Shown piece by piece: positions 7,236 through 43,400 of a DNA stretch of 64,000 nucleotides. How positions within the stretch are numbered: position 1 is the stretch's first letter; the number at the start of each line of letters is the position of its first letter. Origin of the DNA: a virus (Duplodnaviria; Caudoviricetes); the IMG/VR virus record IMGVR_UViG_3300031555_004524, positions 128,001-192,000 of that record; one strand, given 5' to 3'. The position numbers were made by a program, and so were the translations under genes. Below the pieces are notes generated by a model, which was not told where the DNA came from, did not search any database, and saw nothing but the letters and a program-made list of their open reading frames with translations.

Positions 7236-7322
7236 TTATTTTCTCCTCCTATTATCAAATTTAGCAATGTAATATCCAACCAATCCTGTTAGTATAGATA
7301 TTAAAAGTGTTTTAATTCCCAT
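7236..7322 (-). CDS. 28-aa single-TM peptide MGIKTLLISILTGLVGYYIAKFDNRRRK
   Basis: SD AGGAGG 7 nt upstream; first ORF after the early motif; hydrophobic core and basic tail. Confidence 0.65.
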   Translation of the reverse strand: MGIKTLLISILTGLVGYYIAKFDNRRRK

Positions 7323-7386
7323 ATAGTATTCCTCCTAATATACTATATATCATATGTATAATATATAATCATTATAATAAATATTG

Positions 7387-14827: not shown

Positions 14828-15166
14828 TTAATTGAATCGATATGTTCTATCATTAATTGAAACGATGTAAGACTTGTATTCATAAATTTGATTGAGATAT
14901 TCCATGATATCTACTTCCTCGATATATAATATTTCTTTAGGACATTCAGGATTTGGACATTCATTTGCTCCCGCATTCATTGGATATCCACAATATGGAC
15001 AAACTCCTGGTCCTATAAAACGTTCTTCAAAGATTGTGTCGTTTTTTGGTACTCTTGTGTACTCCAGTTCAGCTACTAACTCGCCCTCTTCAATAGCTTG
15101 CACTCGTATATACTGAATATCTTCTATTCGGTATTGTACGATTCTTCCTCTTTGTTTTTCCATCAT
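14828..15166 (-). CDS. Small zinc-ribbon protein
   Basis: CPYCG...CPNPEC; own early motif (15218-15225) and terminator. Confidence 0.7.
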   Translation of the reverse strand: MMEKQRGRIVQYRIEDIQYIRVQAIEEGELVAELEYTRVPKNDTIFEERFIGPGVCPYCGYPMNAGANECPNPECPKEILYIEEVDIMEYLNQIYEYKSYIVSINDRTYRFN

Positions 15167-15282
15167 ATTTGTCTCTCCTTTTTCTCATATAATGTATACT
15201 TATAGCGTATCATAACTATAATATACAACTGTTATATTTTATAGTTACTAAATCTGTACAAATATACATTTTTACTAATCTT

Positions 15283-16101
15283 CTAATAGAATATCTGATA
15301 AATAATATCGATACCTTTATCTTCTTCGATTAATGACTCTGTAGAAAAATTCAATTTTGTAAGTGGTCTAATATTCTGATATACAGTATAACCATTAATT
15401 ACCTTTGGCACTGCTGTTAATAATGAAATAGTATTAATTTTGGCATCATTAATACCAGTAGTAGCAATAAAGAATTCTCTACAATCTTCTGGTGTAATAG
15501 ATAGCTTAATTTCAACATATGATTCAACTCTCATTGAATTGTCTGACATATATATATTCTCATCGATAGGAGTACCATCGACATATTCCTGTTTGAAAAT
15601 AGGTGCCTGCTCAAAAGCTTTGAAATAATATGCAATTCTATCAGCAGCAGCAATTGTTTTTCTTCCAAAATATTTTTCTCGCAAATCAGCTGAAATATCT
15701 GCATTGGTTAACTGATATCTAAATGGAACAAGATCTTCTGCACTGATCCACTTAGTATAATCTACATCTAATTTCTGACTAACTTCTGGTCCGCATCCAC
15801 CAACACCTACTGCAAATAAATAAACATATGAATCTAAACGTTCTTCCGAATCTGTAATAGATGATATATTATCTAATCCTAATACTGAATTGTATGTAGG
15901 AGTTTTTACTGGAATGCTAATATCTTTAAAATGTTTCATTGCAGTAAAAGTTGAACCTGGTAATATAACTTTATTATCCTCTTCAAATAATAAAATGTCG
16001 GTACCATGAATATAAAATTTACCATGACCTCTTGCAATTCTATTAAAATTTGCATTGTCTTGCGACTTTGCTCCATCATATAATACTTTTTTAGTATTCA
16101 T
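15283..16101 (-). CDS. Putative virion/baseplate protein
   Basis: NKVILPG, LFAVGVGG, LVPFRY and INTISL motifs; co-transcribed with the 768-aa structural gene. Confidence 0.5.
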   Translation of the reverse strand: MNTKKVLYDGAKSQDNANFNRIARGHGKFYIHGTDILLFEEDNKVILPGSTFTAMKHFKDISIPVKTPTYNSVLGLDNISSITDSEERLDSYVYLFAVGVGGCGPEVSQKLDVDYTKWISAEDLVPFRYQLTNADISADLREKYFGRKTIAAADRIAYYFKAFEQAPIFKQEYVDGTPIDENIYMSDNSMRVESYVEIKLSITPEDCREFFIATTGINDAKINTISLLTAVPKVINGYTVYQNIRPLTKLNFSTESLIEEDKGIDIIYQIFY

Positions 16102-16121
16102 TGTTATTACCTCCTAAAAAT

Positions 16122-18428
16122 TTAATTTGTATATGAAATATGTATCACATCCTCAAGATATATTTTTTCTTTTGGTTTGAGGTGTACTAATAATTCATTT
16201 ATGTAATCATCAATCTGAACATGATCTACTTTATGAAGTAAATACTTGAACAGTATTCTGTCTATAATTGATATCCAGTTATCTACTCTATTGTCAAATT
16301 TGTACACAATATTCATATGAGTGAAATCAACTTTATAAGATTTAAAGAAATTTAATACTTTATATAAATATTGTCTTAGATAATCCATAGATACAGTAGG
16401 TATTCCATGGAAAATAAATCTAAATTCTTCTTCATCAAGATATATATAAATATTATCTACAATATAATTGATAATTTCTGAGCATTTATTTTTTCTATCA
16501 GACTCACTATCAATATTTTTGCAATCATAAATAATACTATATAGCGGACTATTTTTTTCAGATAAGAATTCTAAATATGTTTTTGGTTCATATCCGATAG
16601 ATCTAAAATAATCAAAATTTAATTGCGTTATCATTAATGAATCGAAGAGTTTCTTATATATATCATAAATATTCTTATCATTAGCAGTATACATCTGATC
16701 AACTAAGTGATTATAAATATTTTTATTATTTGTGTATATTTCTATTAATTGATCGAAGGTAAATACTCCATCTTTTGGGTTCTTAAATCCTGATATTCCT
16801 AATTCTTCTAATGTAAATTTCTTTTCTGCTACATATGAAGCTAAGTCATTCATGTCAGTTTCAAAATTAAACCCACAAACTGCTAATACTTGAATTGGAT
16901 TATATATGATATTATCTTTGATACCAAGATATGTATACATTAAAGAATATAACCCAATTAAACACTCGACGAGATTAAATTTATTAGTAGAACTTAATTC
17001 TGGAATGTCTAAATTTAATTCGTTCATATTTATATTACTATATAATATCATATTTATGAAATAACATAATTCCAACGTTAATTCTGTTAAAGAATAGGTT
17101 GTTTCCATACCAAGATATTTAGTAATAACCATATTGAATTCTCTTTCCAATATAGTATGTTTAACCTCTTCTGCAGTATAAGGCCCATTCCAATATACAT
17201 CATCTTTCACAAAATCATCATATGATACTATATTAAATGGATCTCGTATAGCTTCTTCTGCTATACCACCATCAAGTGGAACTTTTAAGAATTTAAGCTC
17301 ATAGTTAGCATCAACATTTTCAACCATTTGACCAGTTTTAGGATCTTCAAACATATCTTTTTGATATGACCCATCTTCGCGAATAACTGGATCTTTTAAA
17401 AGATAATATTGAAATAGTTCAACTTCATCAAATCCAAATAATGATGCTATATCTATTAGATTCTTATTACAAGATTTATACTTAATTAATCTATTAAGAT
17501 TTTTAACTAATCTCTTTTGATATTTTAATGGTATTTCAGGAAAATATTTTACTCCCTGAGACTCAAATACATATTGAATAGTTCTAAGGTCAAATAATTC
17601 TCGCTGAATAATATATTCTGGAGATAAGTTTATCATATCCACAAATGATTGTATAATAATCATACACATTACAAATTTATCATAATAATCTGATTCAAAT
17701 TTGTATGCTTCTGAATAGAAGGTTTGTAATAAAAATACTCGATTTATTTCTAATCTATCTTTAAATTTATTATAAACTTCTGTTGATTGACATGATGGTA
17801 AATATAACAACCCAAATTTAGCAGTTTTTCTAGCTAAATATGGATTTATTTTTTTCTCCCCAACATAATTCAAATATGTCTTATTTGGATAGGTAGCTTT
17901 TATTTCTTGCAATATATTCTTGGTTTCTAGTATATGAATTTCATCACTATCCATCTCATGAATATATTTATAATAATCAAAAGTCTCAATGCCAATTCTA
18001 GACATTTGATCGTAAGTTAAATGTATACCTTTATCCCCAAGAGGAGGTATACCATTAAGCATTCTATAATATTCATTCTGCTCTTCAAATTCTGCTAGAA
18101 AAGATTCTTCCTTATTCTTTAATATAGCAGATCTATATGAAGTCGGTATAAGTTTATTATTATTAGCATACATTTTTGCTGCTTCGCTACTAATACCTGG
18201 AACTTTTATAAGGTCCTTATATTCGAAATTCCATAATTCGAATCTATCTCTGCCCTCTACGATATCGGCATATCTATCAGCCATTTTTACACTATAAAGC
18301 GTTTCATGCTTATCTGCCTCGTCTTGATCTTTTAATATAATACCTTCAGTTATCATATTACGACACTGAAATACTATTTCATCGATTATCGGCACGTCTG
18401 TATAAATTCTCTGCGTTGTATCGACCAT
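16122..18428 (-). CDS. Putative baseplate/virion structural protein
   Basis: EQNEYYRMLNGIP and LIKYKSCNKNLIDIASLFG (wedge-like); late promoter variant at 18458-18469. Confidence 0.55.
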   Translation of the reverse strand: MVDTTQRIYTDVPIIDEIVFQCRNMITEGIILKDQDEADKHETLYSVKMADRYADIVEGRDRFELWNFEYKDLIKVPGISSEAAKMYANNNKLIPTSYRSAILKNKEESFLAEFEEQNEYYRMLNGIPPLGDKGIHLTYDQMSRIGIETFDYYKYIHEMDSDEIHILETKNILQEIKATYPNKTYLNYVGEKKINPYLARKTAKFGLLYLPSCQSTEVYNKFKDRLEINRVFLLQTFYSEAYKFESDYYDKFVMCMIIIQSFVDMINLSPEYIIQRELFDLRTIQYVFESQGVKYFPEIPLKYQKRLVKNLNRLIKYKSCNKNLIDIASLFGFDEVELFQYYLLKDPVIREDGSYQKDMFEDPKTGQMVENVDANYELKFLKVPLDGGIAEEAIRDPFNIVSYDDFVKDDVYWNGPYTAEEVKHTILEREFNMVITKYLGMETTYSLTELTLELCYFINMILYSNINMNELNLDIPELSSTNKFNLVECLIGLYSLMYTYLGIKDNIIYNPIQVLAVCGFNFETDMNDLASYVAEKKFTLEELGISGFKNPKDGVFTFDQLIEIYTNNKNIYNHLVDQMYTANDKNIYDIYKKLFDSLMITQLNFDYFRSIGYEPKTYLEFLSEKNSPLYSIIYDCKNIDSESDRKNKCSEIINYIVDNIYIYLDEEEFRFIFHGIPTVSMDYLRQYLYKVLNFFKSYKVDFTHMNIVYKFDNRVDNWISIIDRILFKYLLHKVDHVQIDDYINELLVHLKPKEKIYLEDVIHISYTN

Positions 18429-18566
18429 CTAGATTCATTCCTTTCTCTAGAAATATTTATTAGAATGTGCACAAAAACAAAAATATACAACAATAATTCA
18501 ATTATATAGCTAGATTCAATATAATAGGGGAAACATAGCAGTAACTTAAAAAGGAAGTGATAATAT

Positions 18567-19277
18567 ATGAATGATAATATAGCAGATGTACGAATGTCTT
18601 ATGAAATGGAAGGAAATCCAACATTACATTCTCCAAATACACCATTCGAACAACCTTTTTTATCAGATAGAGATACATTTATGGATGTGGATGAATATAA
18701 AGCTTTTGTGGAAAATTGTATTTCCAGATTTAGACATAGTGTTACATATAAAAATTATAAGCATTACTTGTATGATATAGGATTAAACAGATGCCAATTA
18801 TTAGGTAATATTACAAGTGATATGAAAGTGGCAATAGAAATGCATCATAATTTCTTAAATATTTTTGATATTACTGTATTAATAACTGAGCATATGATAA
18901 ATACTATAGGTTATTGTACAACTTTCGACGTAGTTCAAGCATTAAAAGAAGAGCATAAGAATAATAATATTCCAATAGTTATGCTTTCTAAAACAGCTCA
19001 TCAATTATATCACAATTCAAACGGAGAATTATTTATGCCAGCGAGAATGTGCTTTGGATTCTGGTATGAATTACTTAGAAAATATAATAGAGGTATAACT
19101 ATAAATATAGCACAAAAAGTTGTAAATTTCTTACGCAAAAGCGTTGAATATGAACAGAAATATTTACCAGATGAGGATATGACTAGAAAGTTATTAGAAG
19201 TAAGAGAACAAGTAGAAGGGTGGAATCAATATAATGAATATGCAGATATTATGCGGATTAATGGTGTTATATACTAG
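18567..19277 (+). CDS. His-rich HNH-like fold protein (paralog of 29359-30195)
   Basis: C...IEMHH...H...LSKTAHQLYH; late promoter at 18532-18543. Confidence 0.6.
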   Translation: MNDNIADVRMSYEMEGNPTLHSPNTPFEQPFLSDRDTFMDVDEYKAFVENCISRFRHSVTYKNYKHYLYDIGLNRCQLLGNITSDMKVAIEMHHNFLNIFDITVLITEHMINTIGYCTTFDVVQALKEEHKNNNIPIVMLSKTAHQLYHNSNGELFMPARMCFGFWYELLRKYNRGITINIAQKVVNFLRKSVEYEQKYLPDEDMTRKLLEVREQVEGWNQYNEYADIMRINGVIY

Positions 19278-19674
19278 TGCAACTATAATTGGTTTGTTCT
19301 TAATCGCTTATGAATTAAGAATAAAAAATAAAGAATCTCAAGAAAGACGTTTATTGGATGAACGTCAATTGCTATATACTATGCATATAGATAATAACGA
19401 TATGGATATATTAGATCAACTTATTATGGATAGTGTAACAGACTATAGAATTTTAAATATAGATTATGATCCACAGTTTTATATGAATAGCAATGAAGAA
19501 CAAAAAATGCTTAAAACTGTATTGGAAGATGTATTAACAAAATTATCTCCAATCATATTAGAAAGATTATCTTTATTATATAATAAAGATAAATTAGAAG
19601 ATATAATATTTAAAAAAGTCAGTATGGCAATATTATCTTGTAAGGTAGAGATAAATGGTAATTTTAAAGAATAA
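19234..19674 (+). CDS. Protein with an N-terminal TM segment
   Basis: Hydrophobic N-terminus; overlaps the upstream gene. Confidence 0.65.
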   Translation: MNMQILCGLMVLYTSATIIGLFLIAYELRIKNKESQERRLLDERQLLYTMHIDNNDMDILDQLIMDSVTDYRILNIDYDPQFYMNSNEEQKMLKTVLEDVLTKLSPIILERLSLLYNKDKLEDIIFKKVSMAILSCKVEINGNFKE

Positions 19675-19679
19675 AAAGG

Positions 19680-19707
19680 AGGAGTAGAGCAAAATAGCTC
19701 TACTCCT
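19680..19707. terminator. Bidirectional terminator
   Basis: Stem aggagtagagc/gctctactcct between convergent genes. Confidence 0.8.
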
Positions 19708-19719
19708 ATATATTTTATT

Positions 19720-20568
19720 TTAAATTGCAATTGGAATATTCTTAATTTGTGGTCCAGCTTCATAATTATCCAGTCTTACATCATCTGGTGTAAAGTCATA
19801 AAAATCTTTAATCTCAGGATTCAGCCAAAGTGTTGGCGCTGGAAGGGGCTCTCTACTGATTAATTCTTCAATTAAAGGAATATGTCTATCATATATATGA
19901 GCATCTGCTATTACATGCACAAACTCTCCAACTTGCATATCACATACTTGTGCTATCATATGTAACAATATTGCATATTGACATACATTCCAATTGTTAG
20001 CTGCAAGTACATCCTGTGAACGTTGATTTAAAATTCCATTTAATATAAGTTTATCACAATCTTTTTCTTTTGTTACATTGAATGTCATACTATATGCACA
20101 TGGATAAAGATTCATTTCATGAAGATCTTGATGTACATAGATATTTGTCATAATGCGACGACTATAAGGATTATTTTTGAGATCATATATAACTCTATCT
20201 ACTTGATCCATCATTCCTTCTTTATACTGATGCTTAATTCCAAGCTGATATCCATACGCTTTTCCAATAGAACCGTTTTCATCAGCCCAACTGTCCCAAA
20301 TATGTGGTTTTAAATCATGAATATTATTAGATTTCTTTTGCCAAATCCAAAGAATTTCATCAGTACAACTTTTTATACCAGTTTTTCTTAAAGTTAATGC
20401 TGGAAATTCTTTTCGTAAATCATAACGATTAACAACTCCAAATTTCTTAATAGTATAAGCTGGTGTTCCGTCTTCCCATTTTGGGCGCACCTTTTCACCT
20501 TCAGTGCTTGTGCCATTATCAATAATATCTCGACACATATTTATGAATACTTGATCTGCGTAACTCAT
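19720..20568 (-). CDS. thyA: Thymidylate synthase
   Basis: SRRI, LYPCAY (catalytic Cys), QRSQD, DAHIYDRH. Confidence 0.97.
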   Translation of the reverse strand: MSYADQVFINMCRDIIDNGTSTEGEKVRPKWEDGTPAYTIKKFGVVNRYDLRKEFPALTLRKTGIKSCTDEILWIWQKKSNNIHDLKPHIWDSWADENGSIGKAYGYQLGIKHQYKEGMMDQVDRVIYDLKNNPYSRRIMTNIYVHQDLHEMNLYPCAYSMTFNVTKEKDCDKLILNGILNQRSQDVLAANNWNVCQYAILLHMIAQVCDMQVGEFVHVIADAHIYDRHIPLIEELISREPLPAPTLWLNPEIKDFYDFTPDDVRLDNYEAGPQIKNIPIAI

Positions 20569-20629
20569 AGTATTTCCTCCTTTTACTATATTAATTATAT
20601 ATTTTTATCTATATAAAAAATAAAAAAAT

Positions 20630-20782
20630 AAATTGATATATAGTAGAGAGTTTAATAAGGGGAGATTATTAAACTCTCTACATATAACGATACACTTGCA
20701 ATAACTGGGAGTATTATAGTTAGTTATTGCTATATATGATAAAACCAAATAATATAAGAAGGAGAGCATCTTATATTATCAC
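20630..20782 (-). ncRNA. Predicted ~150-nt three-hairpin sRNA with C-rich anti-SD loops
   Basis: Early motif at 20787-20794; perfect stems at 20749-20779, 20698-20730 and 20643-20681; no ORF. Confidence 0.6.
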
Positions 20783-20829
20783 ATTTATAATATATAACCA
20801 AAAATACGATTATTATCAATTATATCAAT

Positions 20830-21087
20830 TTAAAATTTTCGTTTAAAAATTACCCAATCATGCATAAAATCTACATCAGCTAATAATTCTTTTACCAAAT
20901 ATGCTTCGTGAATAGATTCGTATCCAGTCGCATGATTAAAATTTTTAGCTAAAGGTATTTCATCCATATAATTATCGTTTATAGATATATCTAGTATATC
21001 CTTATTTCCAGAATAATATACAAACCTACATCCATATTTTCTATTATTTTTATATTTTTTCCTACCTATAATATAATCTGTAGCCAT
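20830..21087 (-). CDS. Hypothetical protein
   Basis: SD AGGAGG; last gene of a long minus-strand operon. Confidence 0.65.
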   Translation of the reverse strand: MATDYIIGRKKYKNNRKYGCRFVYYSGNKDILDISINDNYMDEIPLAKNFNHATGYESIHEAYLVKELLADVDFMHDWVIFKRKF

Positions 21088-21094
21088 ATTATAT

Positions 21095-21907
21095 TTACCT
21101 CCTGGATTGAAAATATATATTGGATATATATTGAAACATCATTCTTATAATATTTAAATTGTAATTTATATCTATCATCTTTTTCGATTCTTTGTCATCT
21201 AGAACTGCCCATATTTTATATTCACTATTTTTTATAGAAAACATAGAATATGAATTAAATTCCCTATAATATCCAGAATCCAATTCTAATGATACATAAT
21301 CCATATTAAACGTTATTATAGCACCAAGTGCTGATTCTACTCTACCAGATTCTACTTCATAGAATATATATTTAATAAAATCAGATAAATATTCTTCATG
21401 AATCTTATAAGAATCACCTAATCCTTTTACAACATATTGCTCTATCTTATTTATTCTATCATAATGATAAAAACATTCAACATTATTACCCAATCCAGTA
21501 AATAGCATATATGATGTATATACATGCTTTTCAATAAATTTAATAAACCCAAAATCAGTATATTGTAATGCTCTTCCAATAATAAATACAGCATCATTTT
21601 TTATACAAAGTATTTCATGATCTTGAATATTATTTGCTTCAAATAATTGTTTCTTTGCTTCAACAATACCTTGTTTCAATGCTTTATCTATTTTTTCATC
21701 TTTCTGTAACATGCCAATTTCAACTTGTCGTACTTCTCTTGGGGCTACTAATAATCTATTATATAGTTTCTCCGATATTAACCCTTTAGAATATAATATA
21801 CTTATATTTGCTTTCTGTATATCATATTCTCTAATAAAATTATTAAAAATATATGGGATCTGAGAGTGATAATTCACTCTCTCCCATAAGTATTGTTGCT
21901 TTTGCAT
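21095..21907 (-). CDS. Small family-B DNA polymerase-like (palm) protein
   Basis: IREYDIQKANISIL (motif A-like) and IKNDAVF (motif C-like); no exonuclease domain. Confidence 0.55.
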   Translation of the reverse strand: MQKQQYLWERVNYHSQIPYIFNNFIREYDIQKANISILYSKGLISEKLYNRLLVAPREVRQVEIGMLQKDEKIDKALKQGIVEAKKQLFEANNIQDHEILCIKNDAVFIIGRALQYTDFGFIKFIEKHVYTSYMLFTGLGNNVECFYHYDRINKIEQYVVKGLGDSYKIHEEYLSDFIKYIFYEVESGRVESALGAIITFNMDYVSLELDSGYYREFNSYSMFSIKNSEYKIWAVLDDKESKKMIDINYNLNIIRMMFQYISNIYFQSRR

Positions 21908-21919
21908 ATATAACAACCT

Positions 21920-22420
21920 CTATCCAATTTGCATTTTTGTAACTAAATATGCATATCTAGCATTATCTGAATCCAAAAAAGATAATCCTTGAATGGAGAA
22001 TGATCCTTTTTCGTTTTCAGATAATGAACTAAGTGGCATTATATCTTCAGGTTCATTAATAATTATACAATTATATCCATATCTATTATAAATAAGATTG
22101 CTTAATAAATCAAATATTAACGAATCTGGTTTTGTTAAAATAACCACATCTTCCCCATTATATAATAATGTAATTATTTGCATTATTGTTAAAAATAACC
22201 CATCGTTATAAATGATATAATCTTCAAAAGCTTTTTCTTGATGAGAATATTCCAGACGAACAATTTCGTCTGGAATATCTATATTTAACTTATTACTAGT
22301 TATACCTAATGGAGTAATCATGCCTACTATATTGCTATTATTATCAAGCTCAAACACGTTTATATTAGGATAATTATATCGTGTCCAATATAAACAATCT
22401 GCTGGTTCGAAAATAAGCAT
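21920..22420 (-). CDS. Hypothetical protein
   Basis: SD GGAGG favours the start at 22420. Confidence 0.65.
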   Translation of the reverse strand: MLIFEPADCLYWTRYNYPNINVFELDNNSNIVGMITPLGITSNKLNIDIPDEIVRLEYSHQEKAFEDYIIYNDGLFLTIMQIITLLYNGEDVVILTKPDSLIFDLLSNLIYNRYGYNCIIINEPEDIMPLSSLSENEKGSFSIQGLSFLDSDNARYAYLVTKMQIG

Positions 22421-22424
22421 TATA

Positions 22425-23087
22425 TTATACCTCCATCTTTGTAAATAATGGCATCTGTACACCTTGATTTCTGCAGCTTAATAATTTATCTTTATAATCT
22501 CCAACAAGTTTAACAAATGTCATATCATCTACATTAACAGGAATATGCCATTTTTCGCATAACTCCTGTCTTAATCTTCCAATTGTTACTGGGTCTAATG
22601 TGTCTACAATCATTACATAATCAACACCATTAATTATATTATATGCATATAATAACTGAGCATTGAACATGTCATATCCTTCATCATATCCAGCTGCTGT
22701 ACTTGTAGTTTCAACAGATATACCAAAGTTGTATAAGAAATGATCCAATAAAATATCAGAATATCCAAATTCTAATACATCTTTTGGGAAATATAATACA
22801 ATATTTGCTCCCATATATAAAGACCCAATAATAGATGCAAACATTTCATTTGCAGCTTTTTGTCTAAGTGTATGTTTATATGCTCCAGCAAAATCTTTCT
22901 GTCTGCCATCAACAAACATTCCCAATTCAGCATAACTTGGAACTAATGATGCTGCTTTACAGAATCTAATTCCATGAGGATCAGTATCCATAGGATCACC
23001 CATATAGATAGCCTGAGCCCCCTGTTTGATGAAACTATATACAACTTCAATATTTGAAGTTGCATGAATTTTTCCTTTAATAATCAT
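22425..23087 (-). CDS. Hypothetical protein
   Basis: SD GGGAGG; lies within the operon. Confidence 0.7.
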   Translation of the reverse strand: MIIKGKIHATSNIEVVYSFIKQGAQAIYMGDPMDTDPHGIRFCKAASLVPSYAELGMFVDGRQKDFAGAYKHTLRQKAANEMFASIIGSLYMGANIVLYFPKDVLEFGYSDILLDHFLYNFGISVETTSTAAGYDEGYDMFNAQLLYAYNIINGVDYVMIVDTLDPVTIGRLRQELCEKWHIPVNVDDMTFVKLVGDYKDKLLSCRNQGVQMPLFTKMEV

Positions 23088-23113
23088 AATATAAACCTCC
23101 CTATTATATATTT

Positions 23114-24454
23114 TTAATATCCTGAAATTGTTCCATTGATATTGATTGTTTCATGTTTAACTTCTTCATCTCTACCACTTACAACAATCTTATCAATAAT
23201 TTCAACTTCTGGTTCTGACTTATTACATTTGCAGTTTCCATCACATTTTCCATCACATTCGCATTGATGATCTTTTGTAACTTCAACTGCGTTTGAATCA
23301 ACTACATTTCCTTCATAATAGTATGGTTCTGCAACTGGAATATCTGCAGGTTCTACTACTTCTGCAACTACTTCATCCTGGACAGGTTCATTTTTAGAAT
23401 ACATAGTTTTATTTAACCCATTTCCATATTCAGAAGAAGGTCTACTATTCTGATTAACTGGTGAATATATATTAACTTCAACTTTATGTTTCTTAGGCTC
23501 TTCCTTTACAATAGTATCTAAAGAATCAGCTTTCTCTTTTATCGGATCTTCAATACTAATCTTCGGAAGCTTGCGTTTCTTTTCTTCTCTAATAGGTTTT
23601 GTTGGTAATACATCTGAAGCGTTTGTTGTTTTAATAACTTTAACTACTTCATTACCCTGATAAATTTCAATTCTCATACCTTTACCTCCTCTTTTTTGTA
23701 TGATTATATCTTTAGTCTCTTCCAATTTTTGTAATTCTTGTGCAATATATCTAGCACCACATTTGGTACATATTAGATGGTTAAAACCTGCGTCATAATC
23801 TATTTCCCCTCCACATATGTGTCTATCAGAAATTTTCTTTTGACAAAATATTTTATTTCCATCTAATTCATATACGTATGGAAAATCTAGAAATACTACA
23901 CCAAATCCTTCTCTCACTCCAACATTTTGGAAGAATCTTGTACCTATATCATCCATAACATATTTACCTATAATCTTTGTATTGATTACATCAAATACAT
24001 CAGATGCAATATAAGCATATTCTTCTAATGTTTGAACTGGATTTACTCTTTCAAATAAACCTACAGTTCCACATGGACTAACTTCAAAACATTTTGTAAC
24101 AAAAGGAGCTAATAAAAATTGATTATAATATTCTCTTGGGGAGTCTTTCAAACCAACTCTATCTAATGCTACTTTTATTACAATTCTAGTATCTTCTAAA
24201 TGTTTATATACAACTCTGTTAGTACCAGAAGCCAATTTCTTAAATCCTCTTGGTACTAATATATCGTTAATTAGTTGATACTTTAACTTTGGTTTTGATG
24301 TATATTTTATACTTAATGCAATATTATTAAGTTGCTGTATGTCTTGAGGTGTAAGATATGTTAATAATGGTCTTGCTGATAATGCATCAAAAGAAAAATC
24401 TAATGGATTCATATCTTTTGTATATAGCATATCTAGCACAGTAATTCTTGCCAT
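23114..24454 (-). CDS. Protein kinase-like protein with zinc ribbon and low-complexity tail
   Basis: LASGTNRVVY (Gly-loop), VIKVA, DDIGTRFFQNVG, VFLDFPY, then C...CGG...CTKCG. Confidence 0.65.
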   Translation of the reverse strand: MARITVLDMLYTKDMNPLDFSFDALSARPLLTYLTPQDIQQLNNIALSIKYTSKPKLKYQLINDILVPRGFKKLASGTNRVVYKHLEDTRIVIKVALDRVGLKDSPREYYNQFLLAPFVTKCFEVSPCGTVGLFERVNPVQTLEEYAYIASDVFDVINTKIIGKYVMDDIGTRFFQNVGVREGFGVVFLDFPYVYELDGNKIFCQKKISDRHICGGEIDYDAGFNHLICTKCGARYIAQELQKLEETKDIIIQKRGGKGMRIEIYQGNEVVKVIKTTNASDVLPTKPIREEKKRKLPKISIEDPIKEKADSLDTIVKEEPKKHKVEVNIYSPVNQNSRPSSEYGNGLNKTMYSKNEPVQDEVVAEVVEPADIPVAEPYYYEGNVVDSNAVEVTKDHQCECDGKCDGNCKCNKSEPEVEIIDKIVVSGRDEEVKHETININGTISGY

Positions 24455-24466
24455 ATATTACACCTC

Positions 24467-25249
24467 CTATAATCTTACAGGATTACTATCCACAATAGCT
24501 TTAATAAATTGAGCTCGTCTTTCTTCATATTCATTTTTCAGCTTTTGTGGTAATGATATTTCTAAGTCATCTACAGTTACCATTGGATTAAATATTGGAT
24601 TTGTGTTATTATTTAGATTATGCATACTAATTAATTCAGCAAAGCTTTCATGATTATATAATCTACCTATATTTCTGCTCTGCGATTCATATTTTGCTTT
24701 AACAACCATTTCCATATATCTATCAGTAGCTATACCTTCCAAGAATTCTATTAGTGATTCATTTTTACTTTGATTTGATTCACTATTTGCAGTTTGTGCT
24801 AATTGATAATAATATTGTTCTCTTTGCACTTGCTGCACTTCATTTAAATAAGATAATCGTTCCATATTCATATCATGCATTTCTCTTTTATAAATCTTCT
24901 GCATATTCTCCAATGAATATTGACTATCTAGAGTTTCTTGATCAACGATACCATTATTAAAATAAAATTCAGACGCTCTCACTAATCTTTTTCTAAGATT
25001 GATACCGCTGTTATATTCTCTTTTTCTCCTTTCTTCCTCTTCTTCTTGCATTCGTCTAATCTCTAATGGATCATACGATACATACCCATAACCATATCCA
25101 AAATTATATCCTCCGCTATATCCAGCACCACCAATAGGGACAGCATTTTGATATGCTGTCCCGTAATATGGCTGTGTATATTGTTGAGGTGAGTAACTCT
25201 GCTGTTGTTGTAATAGGTATGGATTTGTTATTCCTTGATTATATTGCAT
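24467..25249 (-). CDS. Hypothetical protein with Q/Y/G-rich N-terminus
   Basis: SD AAGGAGG favours the start at 25249. Confidence 0.7.
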   Translation of the reverse strand: MQYNQGITNPYLLQQQQSYSPQQYTQPYYGTAYQNAVPIGGAGYSGGYNFGYGYGYVSYDPLEIRRMQEEEEERRKREYNSGINLRKRLVRASEFYFNNGIVDQETLDSQYSLENMQKIYKREMHDMNMERLSYLNEVQQVQREQYYYQLAQTANSESNQSKNESLIEFLEGIATDRYMEMVVKAKYESQSRNIGRLYNHESFAELISMHNLNNNTNPIFNPMVTVDDLEISLPQKLKNEYEERRAQFIKAIVDSNPVRL

Positions 25250-25312
25250 GGAATTTATCCTCCTTCTATTATATAATATACTATTCAAAAATATATTCTA
25301 TAATACAAGATT

Positions 25313-26266
25313 TTAATAACCTTCTTCTACATTAAAGAATTCATCATCATAATTATTAGGTCTAGAATTAACATATGATCTAAGAGATTTTTGATCTACA
25401 AATATAGGAATAATTTTAGTCAATATTTCATCTATAGTATGAGATATTGCATCATGTAATGAAGTAAGACAATCATTTACTATAGTTGTCATTATTTTCT
25501 CAACAGTTTCATATCCGATAATACCAATCATATTACATAATTTAATATGAATATTATCATATAATATAACAATTACTTTATTTGGAATTTCTATATGATA
25601 TCTTGTATATGTTTCAACCACATTATCCATACTTGAATTTTCTGGTATATTATATGCGTCTACTTCTCTATATACAGTCTGATATATAACTTGATATATA
25701 GATGAATTTGAACCTGATACGTTATATGAATCCTTTACAATATTACTAAGAAGATTTTGTGATAATGTAATCGTATCAAATTCTGGAAATTCTTTCTTAA
25801 TAATTTCAAACATGTAAGACATATAAGCTGTAATAAGATCCAGAACAATAGTAGCAATATATCCTCTAAATGTCTGATCATTAATATATACTTCTGCATT
25901 TATTTCATTTTTAAAAGTATGCTCAGATATAATACCAGTTCTAACCAAATCTAATAAGTCATAAATATAATTTTTACTAAAATCTCCTTTCTGAATTAAT
26001 AGATGATCATATACTGATAATGATTTACTATCACCAAATTCAATAACATTTTTATTTTTAGTAATACCTACTGGCTCATAATAAAACTCTTTATCACTTT
26101 TTGTAATTTTAGTCATATCAGTATTAGGTGTTATTGGAGTTGGAATAATTTCCTGCAAGGGTTCTAATTTTTTAAACAATTTAATCAATGCTTTAGAAGG
26201 TTTAGCAACTTCTTTTTCATTTTCCACTAAAACTGGGTATTCCTTTTTCATTTCTTTTTTCTTCAT
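25313..26266 (-). CDS. Hypothetical protein
   Basis: SD GAGG; late promoter at 26310-26321. Confidence 0.7.
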   Translation of the reverse strand: MKKKEMKKEYPVLVENEKEVAKPSKALIKLFKKLEPLQEIIPTPITPNTDMTKITKSDKEFYYEPVGITKNKNVIEFGDSKSLSVYDHLLIQKGDFSKNYIYDLLDLVRTGIISEHTFKNEINAEVYINDQTFRGYIATIVLDLITAYMSYMFEIIKKEFPEFDTITLSQNLLSNIVKDSYNVSGSNSSIYQVIYQTVYREVDAYNIPENSSMDNVVETYTRYHIEIPNKVIVILYDNIHIKLCNMIGIIGYETVEKIMTTIVNDCLTSLHDAISHTIDEILTKIIPIFVDQKSLRSYVNSRPNNYDDEFFNVEEGY

Positions 26267-26332
26267 TTTTCTCTACCTCACTTTTATCCTTTTATTTTTA
26301 TTTTATGGTTATAGTGCTGTTTAATGTTTAAA

Positions 26333-26728
26333 TCATATCTTATAAATTCCAGCTTCAATATTTTGTGTAAATATATGAATTAAATTATATAATTGATCAA
26401 ATTTGAATATTTTATTTCTAATAAATGCAAATTTAGCATATTTTTTCGGATGGTATATAATTTTATTATATATAAATTTACATAAAATATATTTAGAACC
26501 TGTTGTGGTTATATTATACAATATTCCCACAGGGACACTATCTACAATTTTTGCCAATTCAGGTTTATCATCATCTGCAGAGGTGCCACATAATTTATCA
26601 CAAAGGTAATCTTTTAATAATTCTTTTATATAAATTATACGCTGATAATTAGTACAATCGCTAAATGTATCAGAATTTACAATAATTGTGCGTTCTGATT
26701 CTGAACTTATTATTTCAATTCTACACAT
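26333..26728 (-). CDS. Hypothetical protein
   Basis: SD AAGGAG; follows the RNase H gene. Confidence 0.6.
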   Translation of the reverse strand: MCRIEIISSESERTIIVNSDTFSDCTNYQRIIYIKELLKDYLCDKLCGTSADDDKPELAKIVDSVPVGILYNITTTGSKYILCKFIYNKIIYHPKKYAKFAFIRNKIFKFDQLYNLIHIFTQNIEAGIYKI

Positions 26729-26733
26729 AACTA

Positions 26734-27411
26734 TCAACTCCTTCCTATTAATTTAAAATATTTTTCAAAATCAATATTATCTGAATATACAGATTTGAAT
26801 AAATAATCCCGTTTACAATCCAATGCAACTTTTTTACCTATTAATAGCTGATCTCTTGTAAATCGGTCTATATCACTATTACATTTCATAAGAAACATAG
26901 CAAAAGCCATATCTAAATTAATATGATTATCTCGCTGAAAATCATTCATAAATTTTTGAACATGGCGTTTATTATTACAATCTTTATGTCCATCTACATG
27001 GTAAAATCTAACGTTAATATTATAATACGTTATAATCTTTATACAATCTAAAAATATAGATTGATTGGCAACTTCCATTCCCGATGATGAATACATTTTT
27101 CCACTGCGTACATTTTTTATCCAATTTTTAATCCAATCATTTAATCCATTTACTGTAATTAATGAATCTGAAAATATATTTATATTTTTAACCTGTGGAA
27201 AATTTGCTGCATATAATAATGCCATTTTTATAGCATATACTTCTCCTTCATTATTAGTAGAATTTAATAAGCATTTAGATAAAGCATGACATGGTTCATT
27301 TCCATAATATGCTATATATCCAGGTGCAGAAAATATTCCATCTACTGAAGCATCTGTAAATATATTCAAAGTATCATAGGTAAATACCATACTTTTTTCT
27401 AATATTGGCAT
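26734..27411 (-). CDS. rnhA: Ribonuclease HI
   Basis: IFTDAS, STNNEGE, IFSDS, W-x-x-x-W, VANQ, HVDGH, NSDID. Confidence 0.9.
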   Translation of the reverse strand: MPILEKSMVFTYDTLNIFTDASVDGIFSAPGYIAYYGNEPCHALSKCLLNSTNNEGEVYAIKMALLYAANFPQVKNINIFSDSLITVNGLNDWIKNWIKNVRSGKMYSSSGMEVANQSIFLDCIKIITYYNINVRFYHVDGHKDCNNKRHVQKFMNDFQRDNHINLDMAFAMFLMKCNSDIDRFTRDQLLIGKKVALDCKRDYLFKSVYSDNIDFEKYFKLIGRS

Positions 27412-27435
27412 ATAATCCTCCTTTTTATGATAAAA

Positions 27436-27466
27436 TATCCAGGTATACTTTAAGTATACCTGGATA
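27436..27466 (-). terminator. Intrinsic terminator/palindrome
   Basis: Stem tatccaggtatactt/aagtatacctggata. Confidence 0.75.
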
Positions 27467-27482
27467 ATATTTATTTATTACT

Positions 27483-28016
27483 TTAATATGTAATTTCTTC
27501 CCATCCGAATCTAGAAACTATTGTATCATCTGGTAAAGCTTTTGGTGAGAATGCAGTATATGAGAGTTCAATACCTTCATATTCATCTCTATTATCTCTT
27601 CTAATTTTTAATGTCCATCCAAACTGGAACCCTTTATCTGTTTTAACTACACATCTATTTGATGATACCTGAATGGACCAAAATGGATTTTCTCCACCAA
27701 TTTTCATTTCTGGAACATTCTGTGTGAATTGATTAATGATCATATTTTTGCAGTCATCTGCAGTTAACTGATCAAATTCAAGCCCAAATGATTCATAATC
27801 AAAAAACTGTTTAATTTCTGGACAAAGATTGTATAAATCTGTTAAGATATAATCCATATATACATTTCCTGAATTATCCATTTCGATATCTACAATATTT
27901 TTTCTGAATGTAGTTGGTTTGAATCTTTCCACTTTCTGAGGTTTTTTATTATATTTTTTACCTCCATCATTATTTCTTGTTCTGTTTTTAAATTCTTTCA
28001 TTGATTTTGTTGACAT
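27483..28016 (-). CDS. Hypothetical early protein with basic N-terminus
   Basis: SD AAAGGAG; early motif at 28077-28084. Confidence 0.75.
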   Translation of the reverse strand: MSTKSMKEFKNRTRNNDGGKKYNKKPQKVERFKPTTFRKNIVDIEMDNSGNVYMDYILTDLYNLCPEIKQFFDYESFGLEFDQLTADDCKNMIINQFTQNVPEMKIGGENPFWSIQVSSNRCVVKTDKGFQFGWTLKIRRDNRDEYEGIELSYTAFSPKALPDDTIVSRFGWEEITY

Positions 28017-28089
28017 AATGCGTTGCTCTCCTTTTAGACTATAGAATTATTTTATTATTAAGATATTATCATAAAAATAATATATAACT

Positions 28090-28229
28090 AAAACACAAAA
28101 TAACCAGGATAGAAATTAATCTATCCTGGTTATTGTATATAATAATATGAAGGATTATACCAATATCAAACATGGAATATATGATATCAGAAGGCAATAA
28201 TTTTTGATGTTTGATATATGCAGCTTCAT
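28090..28229 (-). ncRNA. Array sRNA unit 1 (predicted)
   Basis: AACA-N6-TA at 28229-28240; long internal stem; terminator hairpin 28099-28134. Confidence 0.6.
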
Positions 28230-28251
28230 AATATTATGTTGTATAAAATAA

Positions 28252-28366
28252 TTGGAGATGTCCCTCTAGTAATAAAGTACTAGAGGGTTACAGTCATGAA
28301 AAAAAAATCATTTTTACTACCTACATATATAATTTGAAGTTATACCATGTAAATACTATCCGTCCT
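28252..28366 (-). ncRNA. Array sRNA unit 2 (predicted)
   Basis: AACA-N6-TA at 28366-28377; stem with G-U pairs on the minus strand; 3' hairpin 28262-28287. Confidence 0.6.
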
Positions 28367-28401
28367 ACTATAATGTTATTATATTTATTAAAAAATATTT
28401 T

Positions 28402-28527
28402 GTTAGGAAGTCACCTCTAGCAAAATATATGCTAGAGGTAAAACAAAAGGTATTGGGTCATAAAATGATAAAAAAGATATACAAAAATGATAGAAATCGG
28501 CGAGTGAGCGTCGATAATAATCATTCT
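28402..28527 (-). ncRNA. Array sRNA unit 3 (predicted)
   Basis: AACA-N6-TA at 28527-28538; 5' stem at +1; 3' hairpin 28413-28439. Confidence 0.6.
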
Positions 28528-28557
28528 AATTAATTGTTTATAATAGTGTAATAAAAT

Positions 28558-28750
28558 ACATGAGAAATCCCAGTAGTATTACACTACTGGGAAACTCATT
28601 AATCAAGGAAATTCTGCCAAAATTAAAACTGATTAACATGAAGATTTTAAAAAATGTCATTTTCAGGAGAAATAAAAATGATACTCTTTGCTATTTTATA
28701 AATCCATCTTACATATTATAGCTAGTAATAGTATATATCATACTATACTT
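28558..28750 (-). ncRNA. Array sRNA unit 4 (predicted)
   Basis: AACA-N6-TA at 28750-28761; 5' stem at +1; AUUUCUCCUG loop; 3' hairpin 28568-28592. Confidence 0.6.
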
Positions 28751-28779
28751 ATATTATTGTTACATATAATGTAATTTTT

Positions 28780-28911
28780 TACAAAAATAATCCCTAGTGG
28801 GCACGCAACCACTAGGGATTATTTGTTGTTTCCGTTGCACGCGTTATGGCAACAATCATGGAATTTTTAAATGATTAAATACACAAAAGAGAGGATTCAA
28901 AAATGAACCCT
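28780..28911 (-). ncRNA. Array sRNA unit 5 (predicted)
   Basis: AACA-N6-TA at 28911-28922; 5' stem AGGGUUCA/UGAAUCCU; terminator 28786-28823 with U-tract. Confidence 0.62.
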
Positions 28912-28948
28912 ACTATATTGTTATTTGTTTAAAATTATATAAAGTTTT

Positions 28949-29329
28949 TTATTTTCGAGCTACTTTATATTTTTCTGATAATGCAGCAATATCTACTTTA
29001 TGTATGCATGATTCATCTACAACAATAACAATTTCATCTTCTTCAAAAATACCATAATGCTCAATAACGTTATCAATAGCTTCTTCTATTGATATTATTT
29101 TTTGATCATTAATATATTTTTCTAAATTGTTAGAGTATTCAATTAAACATGGGGAATATTCATCTTCTCTATGAATATCTACTTTATCTACTGTATATCC
29201 CATAATCTGTTCTTGGTATTCAGTAATTTTTTCTAATTCATTAAATGCTATATGGTTTTTTGTTAATCCACGAATACCTAAACCATAATTAGCATCTGAT
29301 TCTAATAAAAAATTTATTGTGTTTGACAT
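28949..29329 (-). CDS. Hypothetical acidic protein
   Basis: SD AAAGGAGG. Confidence 0.7.
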   Translation of the reverse strand: MSNTINFLLESDANYGLGIRGLTKNHIAFNELEKITEYQEQIMGYTVDKVDIHREDEYSPCLIEYSNNLEKYINDQKIISIEEAIDNVIEHYGIFEEDEIVIVVDESCIHKVDIAALSEKYKVARK

Positions 29330-29358
29330 GGCTAGTCAACCTCCTTTCTTCATTTATT

Positions 29359-30195
29359 CTAATGTTTATTTTTGTACTCATTAGAGGACTTTTCAGGTAG
29401 AGAAGCATATGATTTCTGTTTTAATTCAGAAATTCTTCTACATAGGACAGTCTCTATATCTTGCATTGTAGGTAAATTGTATAGGCCTCCCCCTGAGTCT
29501 CCAGGAAGCTGAATGGCTAATGGATTCATTTCTAATATAGAAAGCTCATACTTTTCATCAAACGTTAAAGTACGTTGTTTCATCTTTTCAATTTTATCCA
29601 TTACTTCCATAGGTATCCATTCTCCATACATTTCTATGAATCCTTCATAGTTACCCATCACTTTATCTAACGGAATAAATAGGTATTGTTGGTGAACTAA
29701 TTCGTGCACTGTTTCTGCTAATGGTATTATTCCTACTAATAAATAGTAATGAATATACATTACTTCTTTAGCTACTAATTCAACTTCAATACTTTCATGA
29801 TAGAATAATCTCTTTTCTATTACGGTAACTACTATATCATGTAGAGTAAAAGGAGAATGATGTAATTCTATTCTAATTTTGAAAGTATCTGTATTAGTAA
29901 CATTTTTTAAAAATGCACATTTATCCATACTCATATTTTCTCTTAAATAGTTCACAAATCGACGATATTCCCTAGAGCTCCGTATTACTCGTTTAATATC
30001 TTCGACATATTTTTTATAATCTTTTTCTTCATATATATCATAATCCTGCGTGTCATACTCAGGAAGATTATTTAATACTATTATATCGTTATAATACGTA
30101 TTATTTTGTAATTGATTGTTTTTGGGAATTTCAGGTAGATATGATTTACTATCTTCGATTTTAGTAAATAACCTGACAAGATTTTTATCACTCAA
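29359..30195 (-). CDS. His-rich HNH-like fold protein (paralog of 18567-19277), TTG start
   Basis: C...IELHH...H...LAETVHELVH; SD GGAGGG; late promoter at 30223-30234. Confidence 0.6.
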   Translation of the reverse strand: MSDKNLVRLFTKIEDSKSYLPEIPKNNQLQNNTYYNDIIVLNNLPEYDTQDYDIYEEKDYKKYVEDIKRVIRSSREYRRFVNYLRENMSMDKCAFLKNVTNTDTFKIRIELHHSPFTLHDIVVTVIEKRLFYHESIEVELVAKEVMYIHYYLLVGIIPLAETVHELVHQQYLFIPLDKVMGNYEGFIEMYGEWIPMEVMDKIEKMKQRTLTFDEKYELSILEMNPLAIQLPGDSGGGLYNLPTMQDIETVLCRRISELKQKSYASLPEKSSNEYKNKH

Positions 30196-32606: not shown

Positions 32607-32643
32607 ATTTAAGATGATACCCGTGGAGAGTATCATCTTAAAT
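32607..32643 (-). terminator. Intrinsic terminator after the RNAP beta gene
   Basis: Stem atttaagatgatac/gtatcatcttaaat. Confidence 0.75.
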
Positions 32644-40413: not shown

Positions 40414-43400
40414 ATGGCCACGAATGCAATTAAATATCTTTCTAATGTTGGAAAATCTATAATGTATTCATCTGTAGACGTTATTAAGAATGCAAATCCA
40501 GCTATTACTGGTTTTGCTGATACAAATTCAGATGTATTAAAAAGTTCATATACTGCAATTACACATTTAAAAGATACTATGAATAAAAGCAAAACAGCAG
40601 TATTGGAAAGTAAATATGGTGAAGTTGGTAAAAAAGCTATAAAAAATATTTATAGTGATTTACAAACAGGTAAATTTTATAACAGAGAAAGAATTGATAA
40701 AGCTGAATCAGAAGCTGCAGCTAGAATAATGGGCGATATGGATTTTGACATTCAGGTCGATATGGGCGATAGTTCTTTTGATGTGGGTGATGATTCTACG
40801 AGAGCTACTTTAGAAATGATGGATACAGTAGGCGAAAAAACTTCAACTGCGATATCTGCAGTGGTAGCTAGATCTGCTGAATATGTAGTAAATTCAAATG
40901 CTCAGATGAATAGAGCTATGTACGAGCAGAATAAAGCTATATTCTCCCATTTGCATACTGGGATGAATACTATAAATACTAATTTGAGTACGCTTGTTAA
41001 ATTAGCAAGTGGTCCAATGCAAACTCATTTTACTAATTCTACTCAGTTCTATGAAAATCAAACAAAATTGATGCAAGAGCAGAATAGTATGATTAAAGAA
41101 ATTTTAGAAATACAGAAAGAGCTGCACAAACCAGAAAAATCTGTATCATCTAGTAGTAAAAGAATTACTATGTCTGATATATTGGATTCTAATGGAATGC
41201 CTAATCTTGAAACCTACTTTCAAAAAATAAAACAAAATGCTAAGAAAATGGGATCTGGTTCAGGTGCAATGTTAGACTTCATGTTTGAGTCAGGTGCTAT
41301 CGAAAGTATTATAGCATCTCCATTACAAGGCGTAAGCAATCTTATTGCTAAGAAATTAATACCAAGTATGCTTACAAGCGCAATGGAAGAATTTAATAAA
41401 TCTTTAACAGGATTATTTCCTGCTATGATATCTAAATTAAATAATTATGAAGGATTCAATCCAGTTGTTGATTTCTTTAAGAATTTACTTGGAGTTGAAA
41501 CTGCTAAATTTGGAGGAATAAATACTGCTGATTATGAAAAAGGTAGAGTTCCTTTTGATGGTATTACTAGAAAATCTATCATTGAAGTAATACCTACGTA
41601 CTTAGCTAGGATTGAATCTGCTTTAACAGGGAGACCAGAAACACGATATGATTATCATTCTGGTAAATTTATAAGCACTTCAAAAATATCTAAACAGTTA
41701 AAAGATATGGATAAAAATGCTCATAAAATGGCATCTTCTGATATAGAGTCATATATAAATGATATGGTATATTATATGAATCTTTCTAAAGAAGATTCTA
41801 AACAATTTCAGAAAGATTTAGATGCTATATTAAGTAAATCATTTCATGATGGTAAATTATTTAGTCCTAAAAATGCGAGTGCTAAGAAATATGGTTTAAA
41901 AGGTGGAAAGCGATCTGATATGAATATTCAGATAATTGCTGAAATATTCAGACAAATGCCAGATAGTATGAAAATGCAATGGTATCCTCAGATGTTTAGT
42001 GCTAAAGATCAGCATTATGAGAAAATGTCTAAATTAAATGAGGGTGGAGATAGCATCTTCACTGCATTATTTAACGATTCTATTGTAGTTGATAAAAAAT
42101 CTTCTAATAAAAATGATAGTGCCACATCTCCTCGAAATATTTTAATTAATATCCATAATGAAGTGAAAATGATCAGAAAATCTTTATTAGCGGATATTCC
42201 TAGAGAAGTTGACGCTAAATTAAAGAACTCTGGTTATTGTGACTATAAAAGAATGGAAAAAATGACATTGCAAACATATCTAACCAATGTCAAAAGAATA
42301 TCTCCAGTAGAAGCAGAGATGAAACAGAGGTTATGGGAAAAAGCTAGAGGTTCTAAAACGGCTACCGTTGAGGAAACAAAAGTGAAACAGACTGCTAAAG
42401 AAATGGTAGCAGATGCTAAAAAGAAAAAAGAAGATAGTGATAGTATTGTAAATTCTACATTATTTGATCAATTCATGGAGTCTGATTTAGCTAGCGATAA
42501 ATTTAAAACAATTGTAAATGGTATGAGGGGGTTAGCAAATGCTCCTGTGCGATCTATTGCTAATATCGTTAAAGCAGCTGATCATGCTTTATACACTGCT
42601 ATTTTTGGATTAGATACAGATGATTCTGAAGACAAGAATATGAAACAAAAAGGTCTTTTAGGCACAATGCATGATGGTCTTAAAGACTCTTTTTCTAAAT
42701 TTAAACATTGGTTGGATGATAACGTATTAATACCAATTACTCGTTTTTTAAATAAAGATTTATTTAAAGAAAAATATGATCAAGTAATGGAAGGATTAGG
42801 GTTAGATACCAAAACAGTTGTTTCTAAGGCTAAAACTAAATTATTTGGTAAAAAAGATGAATTTGGTAGATTAATTGAGGAAGGTGCATTAACTGATTTC
42901 ACTACCAGATTTGGTAATACTGTAAAAAGTGCTGGCGGGTATGTAAAAGATACAGTAGTTGATGCAGCTGATGTGTTAGAATTAACTAAAAAGAAAAACG
43001 CTTCTGGTAAACAGAAAGATATTGTTAATAAAGCTATTTATCAAATTATGAGAGATACTCGTGATAGCGGAGTTGCTGAAATAGAAAATGCTGCTACTGG
43101 TATTAAGCGAGTTGCAAAAACTGGAGTAGTTGCAGTATCTGAAGGTGAAATGATTGTACCTGCTTCTTTGAATCCTTTTAATGTAGCAAAAAATATAAAA
43201 GCTGAAAATAAGGCTAAAGAGAAATTTGCAAGAAGTTTTGGTGTTAGCTCAAACATACCTGGATATGCTACTGGAACTGCTAAAGTAGATTTAGACGATA
43301 AATCTGCAAGAAGTGCAGCTCATATTAGAAGTATGATTAAAAATGGTAGAGCTGATAAAATAACTGCATTTATAAACAGATTACCTAAGGAAGAGAAAGC

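Follow-up and report, generated by a model that had tools for sequence, protein, structure and literature searches.

The window analysed here is a 64,000-nt stretch of DNA, bases 128001-192000 of a virus record of 248,149 bp with 29% G+C, which represents an uncultured 248-kb gut jumbo phage. Near-identical DNA is present in several animal-faeces and gut metagenomes. Unless marked as genome positions, coordinates are those of the window. In the region of interest all genes lie on the minus strand, and a small ORF of 85 codons is followed by a gap and then by thyA, the gene for thymidylate synthase, behind which the unit ends at a terminator. The gap holds three hairpins preceded by a sequence of the early promoter type (Table 1).

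The product of this thyA gene shares 85-88% amino-acid identity with thyA of Lachnospiraceae, which points to a host among the Bacillota and hints, more specifically, at a Lachnospiraceae host. At 32%, the G+C content of the gene is close to that of the phage (29%) and well under the 40-50% found at the bacterial loci that were examined. On sequence features, thyA looks like a host-derived, captured gene that stands under a phage early promoter. At the scale of the whole record, the same 37-nt hairpin sequence is found at genome positions 95-131 and 248094-248130, at an equal offset from both ends; this repeat hints at terminal redundancy, though the ends are not identical from base 1.

Table 1. 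Features of the thyA region and a candidate target elsewhere in the window
Feature	Position	Strand	Description
Terminator at end of unit	19680-19707		Bidirectional intrinsic terminator; sole terminator-like site in 19600-21200 (terminator scan)
thyA	19720-20568	minus	Thymidylate synthase, 282 aa; Pfam PF00303, E = 4e-90
Gap between 85-aa ORF and thyA	20569-20829		261 nt
thyA Shine-Dalgarno (SD)	20576-20583	minus	AAAGGAGG, read from sequence
U-rich tract	20615-20632	minus	Begins 10 nt past H3; read from sequence; in the minimum-energy fold, weakly paired with the thyA SD
Hairpin 3 (H3)	20643-20681	minus	16 bp; loop UCUCCCC; -18.4 kcal/mol; loop unpaired probability 1.0
Hairpin 2 (H2)	20698-20730	minus	9 bp; loop AACUAUAAUACUCCC; -7.4 kcal/mol; loop unpaired probability 0.99
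Hairpin 1 (H1)	20749-20779 (20780 with the G+1.U pair)	minus	11 bp plus G.U; 5'-terminal; loop UGCUCUCCU; tail UUGGUUUUAU; -9.1 kcal/mol
Predicted transcription start, G+1	20780	minus	Placed at the G that lies six nt past the core, following the AR9 rule (PMC5312081)
Early promoter (virion-RNAP type)	20781-20797	minus	TTA-TATATTAT-AAATGT; match to the AR9 consensus ATATATTAT-(6N)-G+1 (PMC5312081)
85-aa ORF	20830-21087	minus	Upstream neighbour of the gap
SD region of the 177-aa early gene	28024-28033	minus	Candidate trans target; loop 1 and one further base are exactly complementary to it

Structure of the intergenic hairpins

On both strands, the gap folds far better than shuffled sequences (z = -5.4 and -5.95). 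A perfect-stem scan and RNA folding recover three perfect hairpins of 11, 9 and 16 bp at 20643-20779, just as an earlier, sequence-only reading of this DNA had described them. Hairpins as such are not special in this genome, since it contains 204 perfect hairpins of at least 9 bp compared with about 33 in shuffles. Most of the phage's hairpins have loops of 3-8 nt and U-rich tails and thus resemble terminators, whereas the loops of H1-H3 are 7-15 nt long.

The earlier reading had also claimed that every minus-strand loop displays an anti-SD sequence, and this proved correct: CUCC is found in all three loops, and UCCC in those of H2 and H3. When loops were sampled from intergenic DNA of the phage, the probability that three loops of these lengths have a G/C-rich 4-mer in common was about 6.5e-5 for one such triple. 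In addition, the genome holds only about one other intergenic hairpin of at least 9 bp with CUCC in the loop of the transcribed strand. That hairpin, at 32607-32643 on the minus strand, has a 14-bp stem and the loop UCUCCACGG, and it lies 3 nt past the stop codon of a 1646-aa gene resembling the RNA polymerase beta subunit. Across H1-H3, the loop motif is unpaired in the ensemble with a probability of 0.64-1.0. The hairpin cluster and its loop motif are confirmed as real and as more than chance.

An operator array acting at the DNA level was considered and rejected, as the three stems have no common half-site. Rfam gave no match at E <= 1 across 15000-30000, nor did it match any of the known cis-regulators of thyA, pyrimidine or folate genes (PyrR site, THF and ZTP riboswitches, T-box).

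The early promoter and the transcript it predicts

In AR9, a jumbo phage of Bacillus, the published transcription study gives the mapped early promoter as AAATATATATTAT-(6N)-G+1 and assigns its use to the virion RNA polymerase (PMC5312081). The sequence TTATATATTAT-AAATGT-G at 20797-20780 on the minus strand fits this arrangement of an extended AT-rich core, 6 nt and a G, and it agrees with the AR9-type consensus at every conserved position. Sites of the TATATTAT-N6-G class number 58 in the genome; 42 of them are intergenic, although intergenic DNA makes up only about 15% of the genome, whereas a control with the reversed motif gave 35 sites, 7 of them intergenic. Most of the intergenic sites (34/42) are co-oriented with the next gene. 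Additional positions are conserved among them, namely T-17, T-16, A/G-15, T-1 and A+2, and the promoter before H1 has all of these. Its assignment as an early promoter of the virion-RNAP type is strong on these sequence grounds, in keeping with the earlier proposal of early transcription from the minus strand. Sites of the form TTR-TATATTAT-N6-G-A are found on the minus strand of the window at 1675, 7351, 11584, 11969, 12142, 15211, 20780, 25266, 28070 and 38314.

The phage genome also encodes a split multisubunit RNA polymerase (two matches to PF00562, beta, and one to PF00623, beta'), and AACA-N6-TA late-type motifs lie upstream of many of its genes. Judged from these sequences, the promoter grammar of AR9 seems to apply to this uncultured gut phage as well. 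Relative to the predicted start, H1 begins at +2, or at +1 if the G.U pair is counted, so that the first stem does directly follow an early motif, as had been noted before. A by-eye reading of the gap upstream of thyA revealed no second phage-type promoter, either TATATTAT-N6-G or AACA-N6-TA. The 3' arm of H1 does contain the core TATATTAT, but +1 would there be a T and the upstream TTR is missing, and a sigma-70-like site with its -10 element in the H2 loop was taken as chance in DNA of 29% GC.

From the predicted +1 to the ATG of thyA there are 212 nt. This would be an unusually long leader, since the median for early promoters in this phage is about 64 nt, and it is within the range known from AR9, where 5' UTRs span 26 to 491 nt (PMC5312081). 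The terminator scan of 19600-21200 found no terminator-like site between +1 and thyA. The tail of H3, UAUAUAUC, has 4 U in 8 nt and was not called a terminator, the U-rich tract starting only 10 nt later; H2 has 3 U in 8, and the tail of H1 reaches 6 U in 8, behind a stem with a single G-C pair. The discrete three-hairpin RNA of the sequence-only reading was not borne out, as the next terminator-like site lies beyond thyA, although the AU-rich 16-bp stem and displaced U tract of H3 may cause some termination by the phage RNAP. That reading had itself allowed that the element might act only as a thyA leader or as a terminator. Given that no terminator follows H3 and that the sole phage-type promoter seen stands before H1, a thyA leader is the simplest reading; none of H1-H3 has the form of an intrinsic terminator, in which a G+C-containing stem runs directly into a U run.

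Elsewhere in the phage, structured and apparently ORF-less RNA follows early promoters at genome positions 27982, 41279 and 119129 and at window position 1675, all on the minus strand. At 41279 the RNA opens with a 5' hairpin, and a clean terminator lies some 110 nt downstream; the RNA at 27982 carries the C-rich runs CCCACCCC and CACCCCC. A stable hairpin at once after the start is found at 10 of 42 early starts, compared with 1.3 in shuffles, and H1 is therefore one of a recurrent class of 5'-terminal hairpins. Another early transcript, at 7321-7351 on the minus strand, has a 5' hairpin that presents the transcript's SD (AGGAGG) in its loop and the start codon in its 3' arm, with a 28-codon ORF behind it.

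Occurrence in related sequences

The element was recovered in near-identical DNA. Five other contigs that carry the 85-aa ORF have a gap that is 100% identical, and contigs of four animal-faeces runs over 20200-21200 are either identical at 20643-20873 or leave the hairpins uncovered. More distant relatives of the gap were not detected: neither blastn nor nhmmer gave more than chance matches to 56 viral thyA loci and a syntenic locus, and in a blastn search of phage sequences thyA alone was matched. Two structure-aware IUPAC scans of IMG/VR, one for the stem base and loop of H3 and one for the three loop words with their spacing, returned chance matches, mostly in GC-rich contigs. The thyA upstream regions examined (at 21 of 56 viral and 7 of 80 bacterial loci) look unrelated, blastn against all of these loci gave chance matches only, and the regions upstream of thyA in Lachnospiraceae are likewise unrelated to the gap. 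For the 85-aa protein, no relative was found among 5.8 billion proteins.

The only syntenic relative (L004/G001), at 34-48% amino-acid identity, is without the whole block of 85-aa ORF, leader and thyA (19720-21087), and in it some 45 nt separate the homologue of the 273-aa gene from that of the 146-aa gene. This relative has hairpins with CUCC loops of its own, which were rejected as counterparts because they are not positional homologues.

Pairing of the loops with Shine-Dalgarno sites

In the ensemble of an RNA from +1 to thyA+40, the segment made up of the H1 loop and 3' arm (UCCUUCUU) pairs with the thyA SD at a probability of about 0.44, as an alternative to H1, and H2 and H3 keep their loops fully open. 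As a partner of this segment, the thyA start region ranks only 26th of 218, so that pairing in cis may occur but lacks specificity; on this ground, the idea of a thyA-specific cis interaction was rejected.

For action in trans, the sequence-only reading had pointed to a 10-nt complement of loop 1, AAGGAGAGCA, that covers the SD of the 177-aa gene (28016). The complementarity is exact, and this gene gives the best loop-1 duplex among the 218 start regions (-15.9 kcal/mol). The match is nevertheless not significant and has no statistical weight, since 53% of the phage's SD-centred 10-mers are found again in the start region of another gene. Upstream of the 177-aa gene lies an ORF-poor gap of 830 nt (28090-28925) with five strong hairpins, at 28099, 28262, 28413, 28568 and 28785.

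In a comparison based on crude gene calls and 24 early genes, loops 1 and 3, with their UCUCC, pair better with start regions near early promoters than with those near late motifs (MWU p ~0.003), because SDs of the GGAGA type are enriched at early-promoter-proximal genes (12/24 versus 47/194; Fisher p ~0.01). The 16S anti-SD has no such preference for early-promoter start regions. The pairing preference for early genes gives modest support to an SD-directed role of the loops.

Discussion

The best reading of this locus is, in our view, that of a structured early thyA mRNA leader with anti-SD loops. We place it ahead of a separate small RNA and of purely structural hairpins, and we hold it tentatively, with slightly less than even confidence. 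Features of the DNA itself are the hairpins with their loop motif, the match to the promoter and the absence of a terminator; from these we infer the remaining steps. The virion-type RNA polymerase of the phage would start the transcript at G20780, and the hairpins would form the first ~140 nt of an early minus-strand RNA that would run on, with no terminator between, as a 212-nt leader into thyA and end at 19680-19707. In transcripts that read through from the early operon upstream, the same hairpins would form an intercistronic block.

In Bacillota, 5'-terminal hairpins guard mRNAs against decay that depends on the 5' end, and examples of such stabiliser stem-loops in Bacillus are the ermC and aprE leaders and the stabiliser of phage SP82. 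Like these, H1 would be flush with the 5' end (+1/+2), and it would most likely give the mRNA the same protection in a host of the Bacillota. The comparison accounts for H1 only, and not for H2, H3 or the common loop motif. The CUCC/UCCC loops would instead be anti-SD modules that tune translation. Perhaps they act in cis on the SD of thyA, or perhaps, once the leader has accumulated or been cut off, they act in trans on early-gene SDs of the GGAGA type.

A rival view, that of the sequence-only reading, makes the RNA a discrete trans-acting early sRNA of about 150 nt, from +1 to just past H3, that is released by termination or processing and blocks, through its C-rich loops, the SDs of phage early genes (the 177-aa gene, for example) or of host mRNAs, in the manner of RsaE/RoxS and RNAIII. 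We regard this as unlikely. It would make sense of anti-SD loops in all three hairpins, of UCCC in two of them, of the first place of the 177-aa gene as a loop-1 partner, and of the bias of loops 1 and 3 toward the GGAGA SDs of early genes. The U-rich tract that starts 10 nt behind H3 and the several other ORF-less early units of the phage also speak for it, as does the finding that 8 of 11 sRNAs of the jumbo phage 201phi2-1 arise by premature termination in 5' UTRs (PMC11512511). However, those other ORF-less early units end in clean stem and U-run terminators, whereas H3 is not followed by one of canonical form; chance alone would give the 10-nt target match; neither Rfam nor the homology searches produced a relative; and an early RNA that represses early genes has no obvious timing logic. 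Less probable again is a purely structural role, in which H1 is a 5' stabiliser, H1-H3 impede decay, are cut by RNase III or act as leaky stops for transcripts that read through from the early operon upstream, and CUCC has no SD-directed function. Such a role fits a genome in which perfect hairpins are about six times commoner than in shuffles and recur, at the 5' terminus, behind early starts. It also fits the U-rich tail of H1 and the absence of any other terminator-like hairpin in the gaps from ~25.3 kb to 19.7 kb, where the remaining perfect hairpins are intragenic. What it leaves unexplained is the occurrence of CUCC in three adjacent loops and their unusual length relative to the loops of the phage's terminator hairpins, and the stem of H1, almost pure A-U, also argues against it.

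Two further explanations are far less probable than any of these. The alternative that the sequence-only reading had offered, an RNA from the plus strand whose loops would show GGA/GGAG as a sponge for a CsrA-type protein or as SD-like sites, we consider very improbable. The plus strand folds equally well, and its loops read AGGAGAGCA, GGGAGU... and GGGGAGA, but by-eye reading revealed no early or late phage promoter on it in or near the gap (and no exact early-core site), no start codon follows any of the loops, and the RNA would be antisense to the 85-aa gene. The features of CsrB/RsmZ-type RNAs (their own promoter, many GGA loops, a cognate CsrA) were not found on this strand, which has just three GGA sites and no Rfam match in a phage that lacks a CsrA gene; moreover, the G+1.U pair exists on the minus strand only. 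Least probable of all is a hydrophobic 54-aa peptide made from a near-leaderless early mRNA. The region had earlier been described as free of ORFs, which overlooked an ATG-initiated frame of 54 codons (20605-20769, minus strand) that opens 11 nt past the predicted +1 and crosses the hairpins. The frame has no SD, though nearly all genes here have one, and no PHROG match; it is rich in F/L/Y/I/N, as is usual for noise in AT-rich DNA, and three perfect stems lie within it.

The structured thyA leader that we favour has parallels in several known systems. The early units of AR9 (PMC5312081) have the same ATATATTAT-N6-G+1 grammar, alongside split multisubunit RNAPs and AACA-N6-TA late-type motifs. 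Long 5' UTRs, too, are a feature of both phages; those of AR9 reach several hundred nt, and the AR9 authors suggest that they may control translation (PMC5312081). AR9 differs in being a Bacillus phage rather than an uncultured gut phage with a Lachnospiraceae-like thyA, and the part of its description available to us contains no account of a leader with three anti-SD loops (PMC5312081).

As to the loops, RNAs of the Staphylococcus aureus Rsa/RsaE class carry a UCCC motif that is unpaired in loops and complementary to SDs, and that has been proposed to block binding of the 30S subunit (PMC2790875). RsaE/RoxS, the Rsa RNAs and RNAIII display the same unpaired UCCC/CUCC in hairpin loops, complementary to the SD, as the element described here (PMC2790875). 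Unlike them, the thyA-leader element is phage-encoded, has a phage-RNAP promoter and no Rfam match, is continuous with a downstream gene, lacks a terminator of its own, and has targets that are predicted in silico only. By analogy it would resemble the UCCC-loop sRNA class of staphylococci and bacilli in the placement of the motif within a loop, and not be a member of that class. A different parallel is offered by the jumbo phages 201phi2-1 and phiKZ, in which short structured sRNAs derive from the 5' UTRs of leaders (PMC11512511). These are likewise short structured RNAs of a jumbo-phage gene leader; their definition comes from mapped 3' ends, and one of them is conserved across genera (PMC11512511), whereas the present leader is predicted from sequence.

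Taken as a whole, these features make a regulatory leader, or an sRNA derived from it, plausible. It is tempting to go further and to speculate that the early RNA mimics the 16S anti-SD three times and sequesters GGAGA-type sites of phage early genes or host mRNAs, so that the leader of a thyA gene of host origin would carry, or release on cleavage, a translation switch between phases of infection; we rate this extended proposal as doubtful.

Regulatory RNAs of jumbo phages are only starting to be catalogued, and we know of none with a known mechanism. If the loops of the thyA leader do pair with ribosome-binding sites, the element would be the phage counterpart of the C-rich-loop sRNAs known from Gram-positive bacteria. 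An anti-SD RNA would then be made by the injected phage polymerase within minutes of infection, and the distinct GGAGA flavour of the SDs of early genes would be tied to an RNA regulator. If the element is a leader only, it would mean that AR9-type phages give captured host genes long leaders with a 5' hairpin cap. Even in that case, the promoter grammar of AR9 would reach uncultured phages of the animal gut whose thyA points to Lachnospiraceae.
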